This document shows positions 20,203 through 28,737 of a stretch of 64,000 nucleotides of DNA, in pieces. The notes under the pieces were generated by a model. That model was given only the letters and a program-made list of their open reading frames with translations. It did not search any database and was not told the DNA's origin. Made by a program: the position numbers and the translations under genes. Origin of the DNA: Theionarchaea archaeon (GTDB lineage Archaea; Methanobacteriota_B; Thermococci; Methanofastidiosales; SZ-28-30). Position 1 is the first letter of the stretch, and every line of letters starts with the position of its first letter. The DNA is taken from positions 286,578 to 350,577 of the forward strand of contig JACVGT010000018.1 of the NCBI GenBank assembly GCA_018992685.1. Direction: 5' to 3'.

Positions 20203-20979
20203 CTACAGTTCTTTCTGCTGACAGCATTCAACAAGTGTTTCAGCTGCCTGCATAGGATTGTCTGTCCTGAATTCTGACGAAAAGAGTCGGAACAAAAGCT
20301 GTACATACCTTTCCATTTCTGTGAGTTGCTCTTGCTCAGATATATCCTGATTGAGCTGAGGGATCTGAAAATCTGTCTTTAAAGAATGGGAGACAATCCA
20401 GGAGGCTGCAACAAAAATGAAGGCGTGCTGGATGAGGAACCTGCTCTGGGAAGACAGTCTCTGTATGGTGAAAACGATGCTTAGATATCGCCATATGGAT
20501 TGAGGATTGTCACTCTCCGTGGTGCGGTGCAGTATTTCATGGGTGAGGAGTTCCAGCACCTTCTGATCAGATTGGTGCCCAAGTGGAATGCTGAGTGGAG
20601 TGCTTCTGGGCCATGGACGAAAGAAGGACATCACAGGAAACACGTCCAGAATCCCATCATAGAAGATCCACAACTCTTCCATCAAGGAAATGATTCTCTT
20701 CTGGTTGGAATCCCACACTCGTTCAAGGTGTTGTTTGAATTCACGCAACTCTTCACTGAAGGCAGGCCACTCTGCAGAAAAAGAGTCCCGAAAAGAGGTT
20801 ACTTCCCGTCGGATGGGAAGGGAAATGCTGGAGAGCACAGCATCCAGGGATGTGCTGGAGACGAAAAGGCTTTCTACCTCTCTTGACCACAGATGGGATT
20901 TCTCTGATGAGAGCTGGTTTCTGGCATATCCCAGAAAATTGAGTGGTTCTGATACGTGAAAGATCAGTCGTAGTGTCAT
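20203..20979 (-). CDS. Hypothetical protein with HExxH motif (possible zinc peptidase)
   Basis: LLTHEILH. Start moved to ATG 20979 to avoid overlapping the methyltransferase; co-oriented with the RiPP operon. Confidence 0.55.
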   Translation of the reverse strand: MTLRLIFHVSEPLNFLGYARNQLSSEKSHLWSREVESLFVSSTSLDAVLSSISLPIRREVTSFRDSFSAEWPAFSEELREFKQHLERVWDSNQKRIISLMEELWIFYDGILDVFPVMSFFRPWPRSTPLSIPLGHQSDQKVLELLTHEILHRTTESDNPQSIWRYLSIVFTIQRLSSQSRFLIQHAFIFVAASWIVSHSLKTDFQIPQLNQDISEQEQLTEMERYVQLLFRLFSSEFRTDNPMQAAETLVECCQQKEL

Positions 20980-21034
20980 GGTATCATCACATTGGAGGTA
21001 CGAACTGAACCCTCGTCTTTGTTGTTGGGCCAGT

Positions 21035-21829
21035 CTATCGTTTTCGAGCAATGGCCTGTAGATGGTTTCCAACTGGACCGAACCCTTCTTCATTCAGGGT
21101 GATCTCGTAGGTCAGGATCTTTCTCCTGAATTCTGCATCGGTTTCAAGTCTCTCTCCCAAGTCTTCAAAATACGCTGCCCCGAGCGTGAGAAACACAGGT
21201 TTTCCCACCACTTTTACGAGATCCGCACCTGCTCTGTCAAATTCCTCCTTGAAAACTCGTGGAGTAAAGGTATACGTGCGCGTACCCCTCTTATCCACTG
21301 CAACTCCTTTGTCCAGAATGGTTTCTCCTTCACCAAAGCCATGGAGAACAGATTGTCTCATGAAAAACATATATCTATTGTCTACCCCAATTTCAATGTA
21401 GGAACCGGGCCTGGCCACTCTCACCAGCTCTTTTATTGCCTGGAAGTGATTTTCTGCACAGTAGGAGACAGGGTCACCCTCTGACAACACGAAGTCAAAG
21501 TGGTCTGAAGGGAAGTCCAGAGCCGTGATGTCCCCTTCTGTTACAAAGATGCGGTCAGTCAGTCCTTCCTTCTCGATTTTTTCAGAGGCTTCTGAAAGCA
21601 TTTCCGGAGAAACGTCCACCAGGTACACAGTATATCCTTCCCTGGCAAGCTGTATACTCCATTTGCCCGTTCCTCCTCCTGCATCAAGAATAACACCCTG
21701 TTCGGGAAGATAGTCCGTGATGTACTTCCAGGTAAGGGCATCATAGATCCCCCAGGATCCTCCAGAAAACATCTTGTCATATGACTCGGCCAGTCGACTG
21801 TAGGTTTCTCTTGCATTCTCTCCTTTCAT
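21035..21829 (-). CDS. Class I SAM-dependent methyltransferase
   Basis: ILDAGGGTG motif I, VDVSPEML, GDITALDF. Confidence 0.93.
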   Translation of the reverse strand: MKGENARETYSRLAESYDKMFSGGSWGIYDALTWKYITDYLPEQGVILDAGGGTGKWSIQLAREGYTVYLVDVSPEMLSEASEKIEKEGLTDRIFVTEGDITALDFPSDHFDFVLSEGDPVSYCAENHFQAIKELVRVARPGSYIEIGVDNRYMFFMRQSVLHGFGEGETILDKGVAVDKRGTRTYTFTPRVFKEEFDRAGADLVKVVGKPVFLTLGAAYFEDLGERLETDAEFRRKILTYEITLNEEGFGPVGNHLQAIARKR

Positions 21830-26835: not shown

Positions 26836-27673
26836 GCAGAACCTCCTGATACTGTGATGCGTCAGCACGTGCTCTGTCAGCATTTGTATACCGATGCTTG
26901 AACAGTACGCGGTTGTTTCGAATGAAATATAAGGACATGTAACCAGAGAGGGGCTGCTCTTTGATACATGGCGTGCCGCCGATTTCTGAGATATCCGGGG
27001 AGGTTTTTTGAGATTTCGAGGATTCGTGTTCATCAGTGGGCACCAGGACAAATACGTCACCTGCATCAGGAATGTAATCAAGAAGATGACACAGATCACG
27101 TTGTGCCCGCACGTGGGTGAGATTTTCAATCTGAGAGCTGTGGCTTTCAAATGTGTGAGGAAGTGTTGTCTTCAAAGCAGAAAACATACTTGTGACGTAA
27201 TGCAGATGGACTGCTTCGGTCCTGTACTTGTGCAGGCTGAAAGGAATCAAGAACGTCGGTACCTGGATGGAATTCTCTTGAGAAAAGACTTCGAGGGCAT
27301 GTATCTTGGCTTGCACAGCCTCAACCCTCCCATGGGAAATCCACCCGTCAGGAGAAAACATGCACCCTGTAGAGAATACGTTCTTGGGCAGCTCTTCCCC
27401 CGTTACTGCACTGGATAGGAGTAAGAATAGAGGGACTGAGGTACTCCATCCATCTACAGCGTCGCTATCCACTGAGACCAAGAAATCGTAATCATTACAG
27501 TCAAAAACCTTCCCAATCAATTGAGAAACTGCGCGCAGTTGGAATTGCCATTCCGGATAGAAAATGGTGGACGCATCCAGGAAGATCTTCCCATCACCTG
27601 TCATTCTCTGCACAGAGAGAGTCCGAGGAATTCCTCTATTCTCAGCTAGTACAAAAATGACTGTAGAGGTCAT
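26819..27673 (-). CDS. Lon-protease (S16)-like Ser-Lys catalytic domain protein without AAA+ module
   Basis: VDGWSTS...FSTGCMFSPDGWISH...VQAKIHA resembles Lon_C DGPSA...TG...G.V..K; ATGA overlap with the upstream gene. Confidence 0.6.
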   Translation of the reverse strand: MTSTVIFVLAENRGIPRTLSVQRMTGDGKIFLDASTIFYPEWQFQLRAVSQLIGKVFDCNDYDFLVSVDSDAVDGWSTSVPLFLLLSSAVTGEELPKNVFSTGCMFSPDGWISHGRVEAVQAKIHALEVFSQENSIQVPTFLIPFSLHKYRTEAVHLHYVTSMFSALKTTLPHTFESHSSQIENLTHVRAQRDLCHLLDYIPDAGDVFVLVPTDEHESSKSQKTSPDISEIGGTPCIKEQPLSGYMSLYFIRNNRVLFKHRYTNADRARADASQYQEVLHEVSR

Positions 27674-28737
27674 CCAAGTTCCCCCGGATTGTACCAGCAC
27701 TGAGGATCAGGCTGATTGTAGTCTTCAAAGTAGCCGTAAGCAATGCATGCTGCACCCCCGTTACAGAGCCCTTGATGCTGCATGAATTTACAGGACTGAC
27801 ATTTTCCCTTCAAGAGTGATCGACGTCTTCTGAAATCCCACAGGACATCATGCTTAAACCATATATCCAGAAAGGACTGCTCAAGAAGAGAACCGAGTGC
27901 GATGGGTAATCTCCTGCAGGGAACAGCAGTTCCATCTGCCAGAACGGTAAAAGTAGATGATGCTACAGCACACGCATTTCCCAGCCGCTCTTCTCTACCG
28001 TTGTAGCGTCTCACAGCTTCTTCCGGATCAGTCAAATGAAAGAGACACCTGTTCTCCGCAATGTGAGGAGTTCCTTTCCGGGACAATTCCTGGTTCTTCT
28101 GATGGAGATACATGAGAATGTCTCTGGTTTCTTCAGGTGTCAGGACAGCATCCAGCATCTTTCCTCTCCCGATGGGAACTAGTCGGGTTAAGTACAGCGT
28201 ATCCACACCCAGTTTTTTTCCCAGAGCAATAAGAGATGGAATATCCTCCTTGTTGTGAGCATGAAAGGTGTAGCTTATCGTGGTCTTGAGAGATGTACTG
28301 GCTATGATGGAGGTCAGTCCAGATACAGCCTTTCTGAATGCTCCTTCTCCTCGTATAGAATCATTCACTGAAGGCACACTCCCGTCAAGACTCACCTGAA
28401 TGGTGGTTATAGGAGGGTGAAGCTCATTCAGGTTCTCAATAATCTGCGGGGTGATGAGAGTCCCATTTGTCTCAAGAAGAACCTGGGTAACGCCTTTTGA
28501 ATACAAATAGCGTACAAGTCGAAAGAGATCCTGGCGGAGAAACGGTTCTCCTCCGCTTAAGGCAAAACAGGGTGTTACTTCAAGAACTTTTAACCCTTCT
28601 ATGAGCGTATCAGCAATCGTCGTGAGCTTCTCAAAGGGAAGATCCTGCATCTTTTCGTCCCTGTAACAATGCGTGCAGTGCAGGTTGCAGCGATCAGTGA
28701 TGTGCCACTGCAACGTAAATCCTCGGGTTGTCTGCAT
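27670..28737 (-). CDS. Radical SAM/SPASM protein 3
   Basis: FTLQWHITDRCNLHCTHC, SGGEPF, CAVASS...DGTAVPCRR...CQSC...C...C...DPQCW. Confidence 0.93.
   Translation of the reverse strand: MQTTRGFTLQWHITDRCNLHCTHCYRDEKMQDLPFEKLTTIADTLIEGLKVLEVTPCFALSGGEPFLRQDLFRLVRYLYSKGVTQVLLETNGTLITPQIIENLNELHPPITTIQVSLDGSVPSVNDSIRGEGAFRKAVSGLTSIIASTSLKTTISYTFHAHNKEDIPSLIALGKKLGVDTLYLTRLVPIGRGKMLDAVLTPEETRDILMYLHQKNQELSRKGTPHIAENRCLFHLTDPEEAVRRYNGREERLGNACAVASSTFTVLADGTAVPCRRLPIALGSLLEQSFLDIWFKHDVLWDFRRRRSLLKGKCQSCKFMQHQGLCNGGAACIAYGYFEDYNQPDPQCWYNPGELG

Follow-up and report, generated by a model that had tools for sequence, protein, structure and literature searches.

A window of 64,000 nucleotides from a Theionarchaea archaeon (bases 286578-350577 of contig C1 in the 3.03-Mb, 45-contig assembly, genome G000; positions below are those of the window unless another contig is named) contains a cluster of ten co-oriented genes on the minus strand, between genes encoding UvrC (18471-20150) and a penicillin amidase (29247-31586). 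Theionarchaea are uncultured archaea of sediments. Two short paralogous open reading frames (ORFs), A1 and A2, share the motif EIDQCMCCA and lie among genes for three radical S-adenosylmethionine (SAM) enzymes with SPASM domains (rSAM1, rSAM2 and rSAM3), a Lon-like protein, a transporter of the major facilitator superfamily (MFS), a PqqD-family protein, a methyltransferase and a protein with an HExxH motif. The cluster is considered here as a candidate pathway for a peptide that is made on ribosomes and modified after translation (RiPP). An earlier note on this DNA had listed the minus-strand order as rSAM3, Lon-like, rSAM2, MFS, A2, A1, rSAM1, PqqD, methyltransferase and HExxH, and all of these ORFs were located. 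Comparisons were made with two other species of the same genus, G001 and G002, and with the metagenomic contigs L029, L030 and L031.

The CMCC peptides

Sixteen copies of the short gene were collected from seven loci: two each in G000, G001 and contig C13 of G002, one each in contig C79 of G002, L029 and L031, and seven in L030. Besides its two complete copies the start of C13 holds a third that is cut by the contig end. The G001 ortholog of A2 is 91% identical and that of A1 reads MYIRSEIEEISMEIDQCMCCAVIVD. The peptides span 24-35 residues and consist of a conserved acidic N-terminal part beginning MY (residues ~1-16), the Cys-Met-Cys-Cys block and a hydrophobic tail of 4-15 residues, variable in both length and sequence. 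Alignment revealed that M1, Y2, E9 and C17-M18-C19-C20 are invariant in all 16 copies, every one of which preserves the reading frame. Position 15, two residues before the first Cys, is Asp or Glu throughout, as is position 13, four residues before it, in 15 copies, with Asn in the other.

Codons at the invariant Y2, E9, C19 and C20 differ synonymously among copies (TAC/TAT, GAG/GAA, TGC/TGT) and a crude estimate by the Nei-Gojobori method, from codons 1-20, gave a ratio of non-synonymous to synonymous change (dN/dS) of ~0.19, with a mean dN of 0.22 and a mean dS of 1.16 (79 usable of 120 pairs). Taken together these two observations indicate that selection on the precursor operates at the level of the protein. 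Upstream of all 16 copies, 40 nt ahead of the ATG, there is a box composed of CGAAAG followed by TTTATAAG or TTTAAG/TTTAAA, and ~5 nt ahead of the ATG stands GGTGAT (14 copies) or GGTGAA (two copies). From the archaeal consensus we take the former to be a BRE/TATA element and the latter a Shine-Dalgarno sequence.

The distribution of the family was found to be narrow. Across 133 genomes from the phylum the pattern M-Y-x6-E-x7-CMCC occurred at seven sites, in three genomes that belong to one genus, and the reversed control pattern had no match. Among 185,579 species genomes, a collection from which G000 may be missing, the pattern EIDQCMCC was found in G001 and G002 only. The CMCC family was seen in one Theionarchaea genus and one metagenomic assembly only, among the genomes searched. 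A search for [DE][QEKR]CxCC in six frames of the whole G000 genome yielded no additional CMCC-type peptide. None of the 16 peptides matched a Pfam family, and the sole match in NCBIfam, of one peptide to L40e, was spurious. Two homologs have been called in public annotation as unnamed proteins; A1 and A2 are absent from the protein collection. The earlier note had taken the short ORFs for Cys-containing precursors. That they are genuine and conserved peptides is borne out by 16 copies with an invariant motif and a control without matches. The note had not recognised the EIDQCMCCA family, which likewise is matched by no family in Pfam or NCBIfam. The short genes are likely, in our estimation, to encode the precursors of a new RiPP family.

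rSAM1 and the core cassette

The genomic association of the precursor is with rSAM1. A CMCC gene was found within ~500 bp of rSAM1 in all six readable orthologous loci (G000, G001, C79 of G002, L029, L030 and L031), upstream of it in five and downstream in L030. The earlier note had named as a refutation precursors that are not conserved beside orthologous radical SAM/PqqD genes, and these six loci do not bear that refutation out. The rSAM1 gene on contig C170 of G002 is truncated at the contig start and was left out; it may extend the array of orphan precursors with which C13 begins. Orthologs of rSAM1 fall into about 29 clusters at 53-84% identity, beyond which identity falls to 37% and the matches are paralogs. 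Invariant in 20 orthologs are the radical SAM motif C80-x3-C84-x2-C87 and a seven-Cys SPASM domain (C318-x12-G-x4-C336, C374-x2-C377-x5-C383-x3-C387 and C403). The scores were 57.9 bits for Radical_SAM (PF04055; cut-off 29.5, E 2e-15) and 52.9 bits for the SPASM model TIGR04085 (cut-off 27). A further domain of ~70 residues precedes the CX3CX2C motif.

The best NCBIfam rows for rSAM1 were peptide thioether maturases throughout, led by CefB (146 bits) and followed by TIGR04463 (124), geopeptide (119), Clo7bot (109), PapB (106) and SCIFF (94), and the closest solved structure by sequence was CteB (5wgg, E 2.7e-19). Judged from these similarities, rSAM1 probably cross-links the CMCC peptides, and the reaction would most likely be the formation of a thioether by one, two or all three Cys of the CMCC block. 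Candidates for the acceptors are the acidic positions 13 and 15 or the variable tail. The alignment to CefB begins at residue 5 of rSAM1 and L029-L031 have no PqqD gene, which together suggest that rSAM1 carries a recognition domain of its own at the N-terminus. Precursor and rSAM1 would form a self-sufficient core cassette.

The precursor array of L030 (JADDYB010000062.1, 1868-13067) is the largest, with seven diverged CMCC copies that surround a single rSAM1 ortholog across 11 kb. The array is broken by large unrelated genes, including ORFs of 1234 and 491 residues, which suggests recent duplication or the activity of mobile elements.

PqqD-family protein and methyltransferase

Genes for the PqqD-family protein and the methyltransferase follow rSAM1 in G000, G001 and C79 of G002, with identities of 81-87% and 67-69% respectively. 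The PqqD-family protein scored 43.7 bits with PF05402 (cut-off 23.4) and did not reach the PqqD equivalog models (20.6 versus 46 bits); its relatives form six clusters only, each from Theionarchaea-type assemblies. No NCBIfam equivalog was reached by the methyltransferase, for which the best was CpaM at 58 bits versus 180.

A predicted complex of the PqqD-family protein with the precursor had an interface score (ipSAE) of 0.45, versus 0.02 in the highest-scoring of three controls. At least 78% of contacts were common to the runs, and the predicted score of the partner in the local distance difference test (pLDDT) was at least 52. When the tool was calibrated, 58 of 80 solved complexes and two of 110 mismatched pairs attained the mark; scores of 0.60 or less included only seven of those 80 solved complexes and both of the mismatches. 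The prediction gives weak support to recognition of the precursor by PqqD. Since solved complexes of a RiPP recognition element (RRE) with a leader peptide exist, the score may reflect likeness only.

The second module

The remaining five genes encode rSAM3, the Lon-like protein, rSAM2, the MFS transporter and the HExxH protein. The first three overlap, with the ATG of the Lon-like gene placed on the rSAM3 stop codon as ATGA and the start of rSAM2 lying 44-65 nt inside the Lon-like gene, and in each of the three species of the genus the trio is kept as a unit. TATA-like boxes precede both rSAM3 and the MFS gene, the latter of which also has a GGAGG site and in G002 lies between the rSAM2 and HExxH genes.

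Both rSAM2 and rSAM3 are full SPASM enzymes without the N-terminal recognition domain. rSAM2 matched Radical_SAM at E 8e-22 and scored 156 bits with NirJ2, 154 with AhbD and 135 with MftC (cut-offs 500, 500 and 265); SkfB (E 2e-19) and PqqE were its closest solved structures. rSAM3 matched Radical_SAM at E 2e-17 and SPASM at E 1e-9, and its scores were 164 bits with AhbD (cut-off 500), 156 with TIGR04053, 145 with ACGX and 128 with MftC (cut-off 265). The PqqE model was not reached by either (99 and 83 bits versus 381). By these scores both enzymes are placed outside the AhbD/NirJ and MftC families. In G000 the nearest three paralogs of rSAM3 (34-37% identity) each sit in other multi-rSAM clusters. 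At least one of these clusters, that on contig C10, has a Cys-rich short ORF, which three rSAM1-like genes follow.

The Lon-like protein had no match in Pfam even at E 10, Lon_C included, and its relatives form 24 clusters, each from Theionarchaea- or Methanofastidiosia-type sources. Its structural model (pLDDT 89.8) was found by Foldseek to resemble the proteolytic domain of E. coli Lon (3wu4_A, E 1.2e-9, probability 1.00, template modelling score 0.76 on the target), and there were 188 matches at E <=0.001, Thermococcus LonB (3k1j) among them. The name that the earlier note had given to the protein is therefore supported by the fold. Invariant across 23 sequences are S77, in a DGWS motif, and K123, which are spaced by 46 residues and may be the catalytic Ser and Lys positions of Lon. 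The protein lacks an AAA+/ATPase module and has an additional C-terminal domain of ~100 residues; the ESM Atlas gave a sub-threshold lead to Lon_C only (0.83). It is a stand-alone Lon-domain protein and probably a Ser-Lys peptidase. The LonB used for sequence comparison is a full-length archaeal one (L018, 2068-3978, plus strand), whose gene on C13 of G002 is separated by 1.2 kb from the orphan precursors there, a proximity that is probably coincidental.

The HExxH protein matched nothing in Pfam or NCBIfam, and only five representatives were found among 1.84 billion proteins. For both this protein and the Lon-like protein phmmer returned nothing meaningful from the PDB sequences, and in the ESM Atlas the nearest clusters of the HExxH protein are without a name. 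H147, E148, H151 and H185 are invariant in six sequences. No PDB entry was matched by the model (pLDDT 88) with Foldseek at E <=0.001. With VIA-align the best matches were catalytic domains of M1 aminopeptidases (Z 8.4, 8.3 and 7.9; at Z 8.4 the root-mean-square deviation was 3.8 over 166 aligned residues), thermolysin had a Z of 6.0 and the top rows were almost all zincins. The model is suggestive of a zincin-like protein. Membership of the alpha-ketoglutarate-dependent HExxH hydroxylases was not found with the models of Pfam and NCBIfam. Those hydroxylases have a zincin-like fold and occur in RiPP clusters (PMC12636437). Such a function is unlikely here because the enzymes depend on O2 and the host would be an anaerobic sediment archaeon.

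One pathway or two

In G000 and G001 the core sits exactly between the MFS and HExxH genes of the second module. The arrangement differs in G002, in which rSAM3, Lon-like, rSAM2, MFS and HExxH make up an unbroken block on contig C8 (bases 174-5291), the last two being direct neighbours, and the core (precursor, rSAM1, PqqD and methyltransferase) is found on C79 adjoining a divergent CDC48 gene. The earlier note had regarded the ten genes as one pathway; what stands of this is their contiguity in G000 and G001, and what does not is its generality, as the modules lie apart in G002 and the core is alone in L029-L031. Each of the three genomes of the genus has both modules, and neither was found in the single genome of a sister genus in the same family, where a 601-residue frame was matched weakly (E 3e-5) by the Lon-like query and the HExxH query had no match. 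That the second module acts on the CMCC peptides is possible, at what we would call somewhat less than even odds.

A number of observations weigh against a single thioether-forming RiPP pathway at this locus. The C8 block of G002 has neither precursor nor rSAM1, and a second HExxH copy lies amid unrelated genes in that genome. Within 8 kb in L029-L031, which are three of the six loci, the Lon-like, HExxH, rSAM2 and rSAM3 genes were not detectable and nor were those for PqqD and the methyltransferase. As the three genomes with both modules are kin, their co-occurrence is weak evidence. rSAM1 is over no named-family cut-off (CefB 600, TIGR04463 525, SCIFF 425, PapB 340) and the type of cross-link is therefore not confidently transferable; a profile comparison with hhalign found no N-terminal similarity of rSAM1 to PqqD (probability 0.09%). 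rSAM2 and rSAM3 score no worse with heme-type models (AhbD/NirJ) than with peptide-type ones. In the hhalign comparison of the Lon-like protein with LonB the Ser and Lys are in register with GDS and AK at a probability of 1.8%, and the Z of 8.4 for the HExxH protein is in a range common for models without a clear relative. The stretch is present in 15 DNA sequencing runs from six studies of marine sediment, estuary, mangrove and sediment, versus no RNA run listed as containing the locus, which says nothing on expression. Reads of four runs gave fragmentary contigs, none of them across the cluster, with 'joint' sides of 22-36 letters only.

Alternative explanations

It could be that two unrelated units happen to adjoin, the five-gene block being an independent system with another substrate and the core an insertion in the lineage of G000 and G001. 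The separate promoter-like boxes would agree with this, as would the core of L029-L031 without any of the five block genes and the C8 block of G002, which has neither a CMCC gene nor a Cys-rich short ORF upstream while the core is on C79. Yet a block with two SPASM enzymes, two peptidase-like proteins and an exporter would then be without a substrate gene of its own in three of three genomes; it is found only in genomes that bear CMCC genes (three of three in the genus, none of one in the sister genus) and is joined with the core in two species. On balance the explanation is rather unlikely. We regard as very unlikely that the peptides give rise to a redox cofactor or metal-binding molecule for the cell itself, on the logic of mycofactocin and pyrroloquinoline quinone (PQQ), rather than to an exported product. 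A stand-alone PqqD with SPASM enzymes is the architecture of those pathways, the MftC model gave 135 bits with rSAM2 and 128 with rSAM3, and an invariant Cys-Met-Cys-Cys could bind metal. However, the cut-offs for MftC (265), PqqE (381) and PqqD (46) were not reached, an efflux-type MFS transporter is encoded, and no dehydrogenase partners were seen among the nearby genes. Cofactor precursors also keep the modified end strictly, whereas here the tail varies and up to seven diverged copies share a locus, which is typical of diversifying secreted peptides.

The earlier note had allowed that rSAM2 and rSAM3 might cluster with AhbC or AhbD, and AhbD and NirJ2 are indeed the best NCBIfam rows (AhbD 164 for rSAM3; NirJ2 156 and AhbD 154 for rSAM2). 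As tetrapyrrole enzymes of the AhbC/AhbD/NirJ type the two would have no link to a peptide. These scores of 154-164 bits are however one third of the cut-offs of 500-650, so that neither is a bona fide member. Of the 47 stretches of the genome that the AhbD model matched at E <=0.001 none passes the cut-off, and six loci score 150-178 bits, a spread which points to a family of diversified paralogs more than to a housekeeping enzyme. In addition rSAM2 and rSAM3 bracket a gene of peptidase fold in overlapping frames, the closest paralogs of rSAM3 lie in multi-rSAM clusters and the flanking genes that were scanned included none for tetrapyrroles, and the explanation is more improbable still than that of a cofactor. 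Least credible of all is that the short ORFs are untranslated and that a regulatory RNA or a repeat accounts for their conservation. In its favour A1 and A2 are missing from the protein collection, meaning that no gene caller reported either. Against this stand the synonymous changes at invariant residues with a dN/dS of ~0.19, the GGTGAT or GGTGAA site ahead of every ATG, the frame intact in 16 of 16 copies and the two homologs publicly annotated as proteins.

Proposed pathway

The reading we prefer, with a probability of roughly 0.65, is that the locus is a thioether-type RiPP system. Each precursor copy would be transcribed off its own promoter and its conserved part bound by rSAM1, a radical SAM/SPASM enzyme, putatively with three clusters, from the lineage of CteB, CefB, CrpC and PapB. 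5'-Deoxyadenosyl radical chemistry would then link the three Cys sulfurs to carbons of other residues, giving thioethers of the ranthionine or sactionine type. PqqD and the methyltransferase join the core in this genome and would probably add a +14 Da step. The second module would most likely contribute more radical modification, trimming of the leader and/or the tail, and export by the MFS transporter. What the data show directly is the anatomy of the genes with their conservation and synteny, and the folds and motifs of the proteins; we infer each chemical step, the acceptors, the order of events and the action of the second module on the peptides.

A more elaborate scheme is a two-stage pathway, in which rSAM1 ties the CMCC block and a translationally coupled SPASM-Lon-SPASM trio with an orphan zincin then modifies and trims the peptide, the Met being cross-linked or modified as well. 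We consider this scheme unlikely. If true it would be without precedent, the Lon fold would constitute a new class of RiPP processing peptidase and the invariant Met would be involved in a kind of cross-link or modification of which RiPPs so far offer no example. Even the simpler proposition that the second module acts on the peptides would, if it holds, bring into RiPP biosynthesis a class of protease that is new to it.

Gene models and neighbouring features

Several gene models differ from those of the earlier note, which had used the longest frames (Table 1). Its lengths were too long for rSAM2 (450 residues, against ~354-361), the HExxH protein (296 against 258) and the Lon-like protein (293 against 284), and for the precursors it had read frames of 28 and 35 residues from GTG, for which the ATG start behind the GGTGAT site is likelier.

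Table 1. Positions in the window of the ten genes and of the putative control elements of A1 and A2.
Feature	Position	Strand	Description
HExxH protein	20203-20979	-	called gene 258 aa; ORF continues to 21093
Methyltransferase	21035-21829	-	264 aa, class I SAM-dependent; Methyltransf_25 E 1e-20
PqqD-family protein	21834-22088/22106	-	PF05402 E 3e-11; 84 aa from ATG preceded by GGAGG
rSAM1	22069-23358	-	radical SAM/SPASM, 429 aa
Precursor A1	23577-23654	-	25 aa, MYTNAKIEEISVEIDQCMCCAFIAD
A1 promoter and ribosome-binding site (putative)	23659-23701	-	CGAAAAG + TTTATAAG, GGTGAT
Precursor A2	23961-24059	-	32 aa, MYTKAEIKEISMEIDQCMCCAAAPIDNIGVVA
A2 promoter and ribosome-binding site (putative)	24064-24106	-	CGAAAG + TTTATAAG, 40 nt before ATG; GGTGAT at -10 to -5
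MFS transporter	24267-25508	-	413 aa; MFS_1 E 4e-48
rSAM2	25798-26883	-	radical SAM/SPASM, 354-361 aa
Lon-like protein	26819-27673	-	284 aa; stand-alone Lon-protease domain (predicted) + C-terminal domain
rSAM3	27670-28737	-	radical SAM/SPASM, 355 aa; CX3CX2C from residue 17

Upstream of rSAM3 lie genes for a small multi-pass membrane protein (28910-29461, minus strand) and for the penicillin amidase, an N-terminal nucleophile (Ntn) hydrolase (minus strand; PF01804, E 3e-227). Both were considered as members of the cluster and rejected; they are syntenic in G001 and are not beside the module in G002. Further along, three large genes for STAND/AAA ATPases (nSTAND2, ATPase_2) occupy 32218-35713 (minus strand) and 38182-41055 (plus strand) at a GC content of 0.37-0.41, and this stretch may be a defence or mobile island.

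Other Cys-rich peptide clusters

Four further clusters were found in G000 (C10:13953-20151, C18:7975-11088, C13:54376-57224 and C2:33099-36109), each with two to three rSAM1-like genes that are 30-37% identical to rSAM1 and lie behind a Cys-rich short ORF. Examples of the encoded peptides include ...GKCGGCACGCFVVNCMGLSAC, ...GVCGCGGCCCAFYCRTLIC and ...CITEGTGSWCCRICHPYV, and one peptide carries six tandem FCALEVQPT repeats. A domain of ~216 residues (...YIRWS...) was seen in two clusters (C1:67295-73195 and C10:18301-20151), in one of which it stands alone before two rSAM1-like genes and in the other is fused N-terminally to an rSAM3-like SPASM enzyme of 616 residues; a role in recognition or as a scaffold is possible. 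With rSAM1 as query there were 35-44 matches per genome in the genus, versus 0-8 in the other genomes searched. In view of these many matches and of the several other Cys-rich peptide clusters, the genus may be a rich and so far untouched source of thioether peptide chemistry.

Comparison with known systems

To our knowledge almost none of the archaeal radical SAM RiPPs has a known structure or function. The ranthipeptide system of SCIFF and its maturase CteB (PDB 5WGG/5WHY) resembles the core in that CteB, like rSAM1, has an N-terminal domain, a radical SAM core and a seven-Cys SPASM domain, and a short Cys-rich precursor gene lies beside that of the enzyme. The SCIFF precursor has six Cys in forty-five residues. 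The CMCC precursor by contrast has three Cys in one block and matches no SCIFF model, rSAM1 reaches 72 bits only with CteB and 94 versus 425 with the SCIFF maturase model, and here the host is archaeal, the precursors are multi-copy and extra enzymes are present. The best-scoring family for rSAM1 is that of the 'Cys-every-fifth' system CefA/CefB (NF038107), with an alignment of residues 5-413 that includes the N-terminal domain; the score is however 146 versus 600 bits and the CMCC precursor lacks the every-fifth Cys periodicity. We know of no published biochemistry on CefB.

PapB, the freyrasin maturase, and QhpD form thioethers from Cys to Asp or Glu, and the acidic residues near CMCC could be acceptors of the same kind. 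rSAM1 scored 106 and 62 bits with these families and did not reach the cut-offs of 340 and 453. PapB substrates have the motif CX3D, and the order of acid and Cys in the CMCC peptides is the opposite. Mycofactocin (MftA/B/C) and PQQ (PqqA/D/E) biosynthesis likewise combine a stand-alone PqqD with SPASM enzymes that have no N-terminal domain, as rSAM2 and rSAM3 do; they differ in that no cut-off was reached, the precursor C-terminus is variable and the cluster has no homologs of MftD/E/F or PqqB/C. The Lon-like protein shares the fold with Lon S16 proteases, including stand-alone or re-used domains such as BrxL-C and RadA-C, and has an invariant Ser and Lys 46 residues apart; it differs in having no AAA+ module and no Lon_C match, in its extra C-terminal domain and in being confined to one lineage. 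In the text of a review of RiPP leader peptidases a term search found neither 'Lon' nor 'S16' (PMC10885120).

Genome mining has indicated that radical SAM RiPP clusters, ranthipeptides and sactipeptides among them, are widespread in archaea (PMC12144867). Within the archaea CrpC of Methanococcus voltae (TIGR04463) was found by experiment to place ranthionine cross-links on a Cys-rich protein (PMC13692751). CrpC/CrpA is the second-best family for rSAM1 (124 bits), and there too paralogous substrates share an N-terminal recognition part. rSAM1 is however below the cut-off of 525, and the Crp substrates, which in that study were chosen as proteins of at least 100 residues with repeated Cys motifs, are large repeat proteins whereas the CMCC peptides are 24-35 residues long with one block. 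No paper on such peptides in Theionarchaea was found in the literature searched; the supplementary tables of PMC12144867 and PMC13692751 may list the cluster.

On present sequence evidence the locus probably encodes a ranthipeptide- or sactipeptide-like pathway that belongs to no named family by curated thresholds, with a precursor family that is new to Pfam and NCBIfam. Its Cys-Met-Cys-Cys block fits no described precursor family, and the Lon-domain peptidase, the orphan HExxH protein and the two AhbD-like SPASM enzymes are unusual candidates for tailoring and processing. Set beside the known systems the minimal cassette, a peptide of 25 residues and one enzyme, would be a compact and tractable one.

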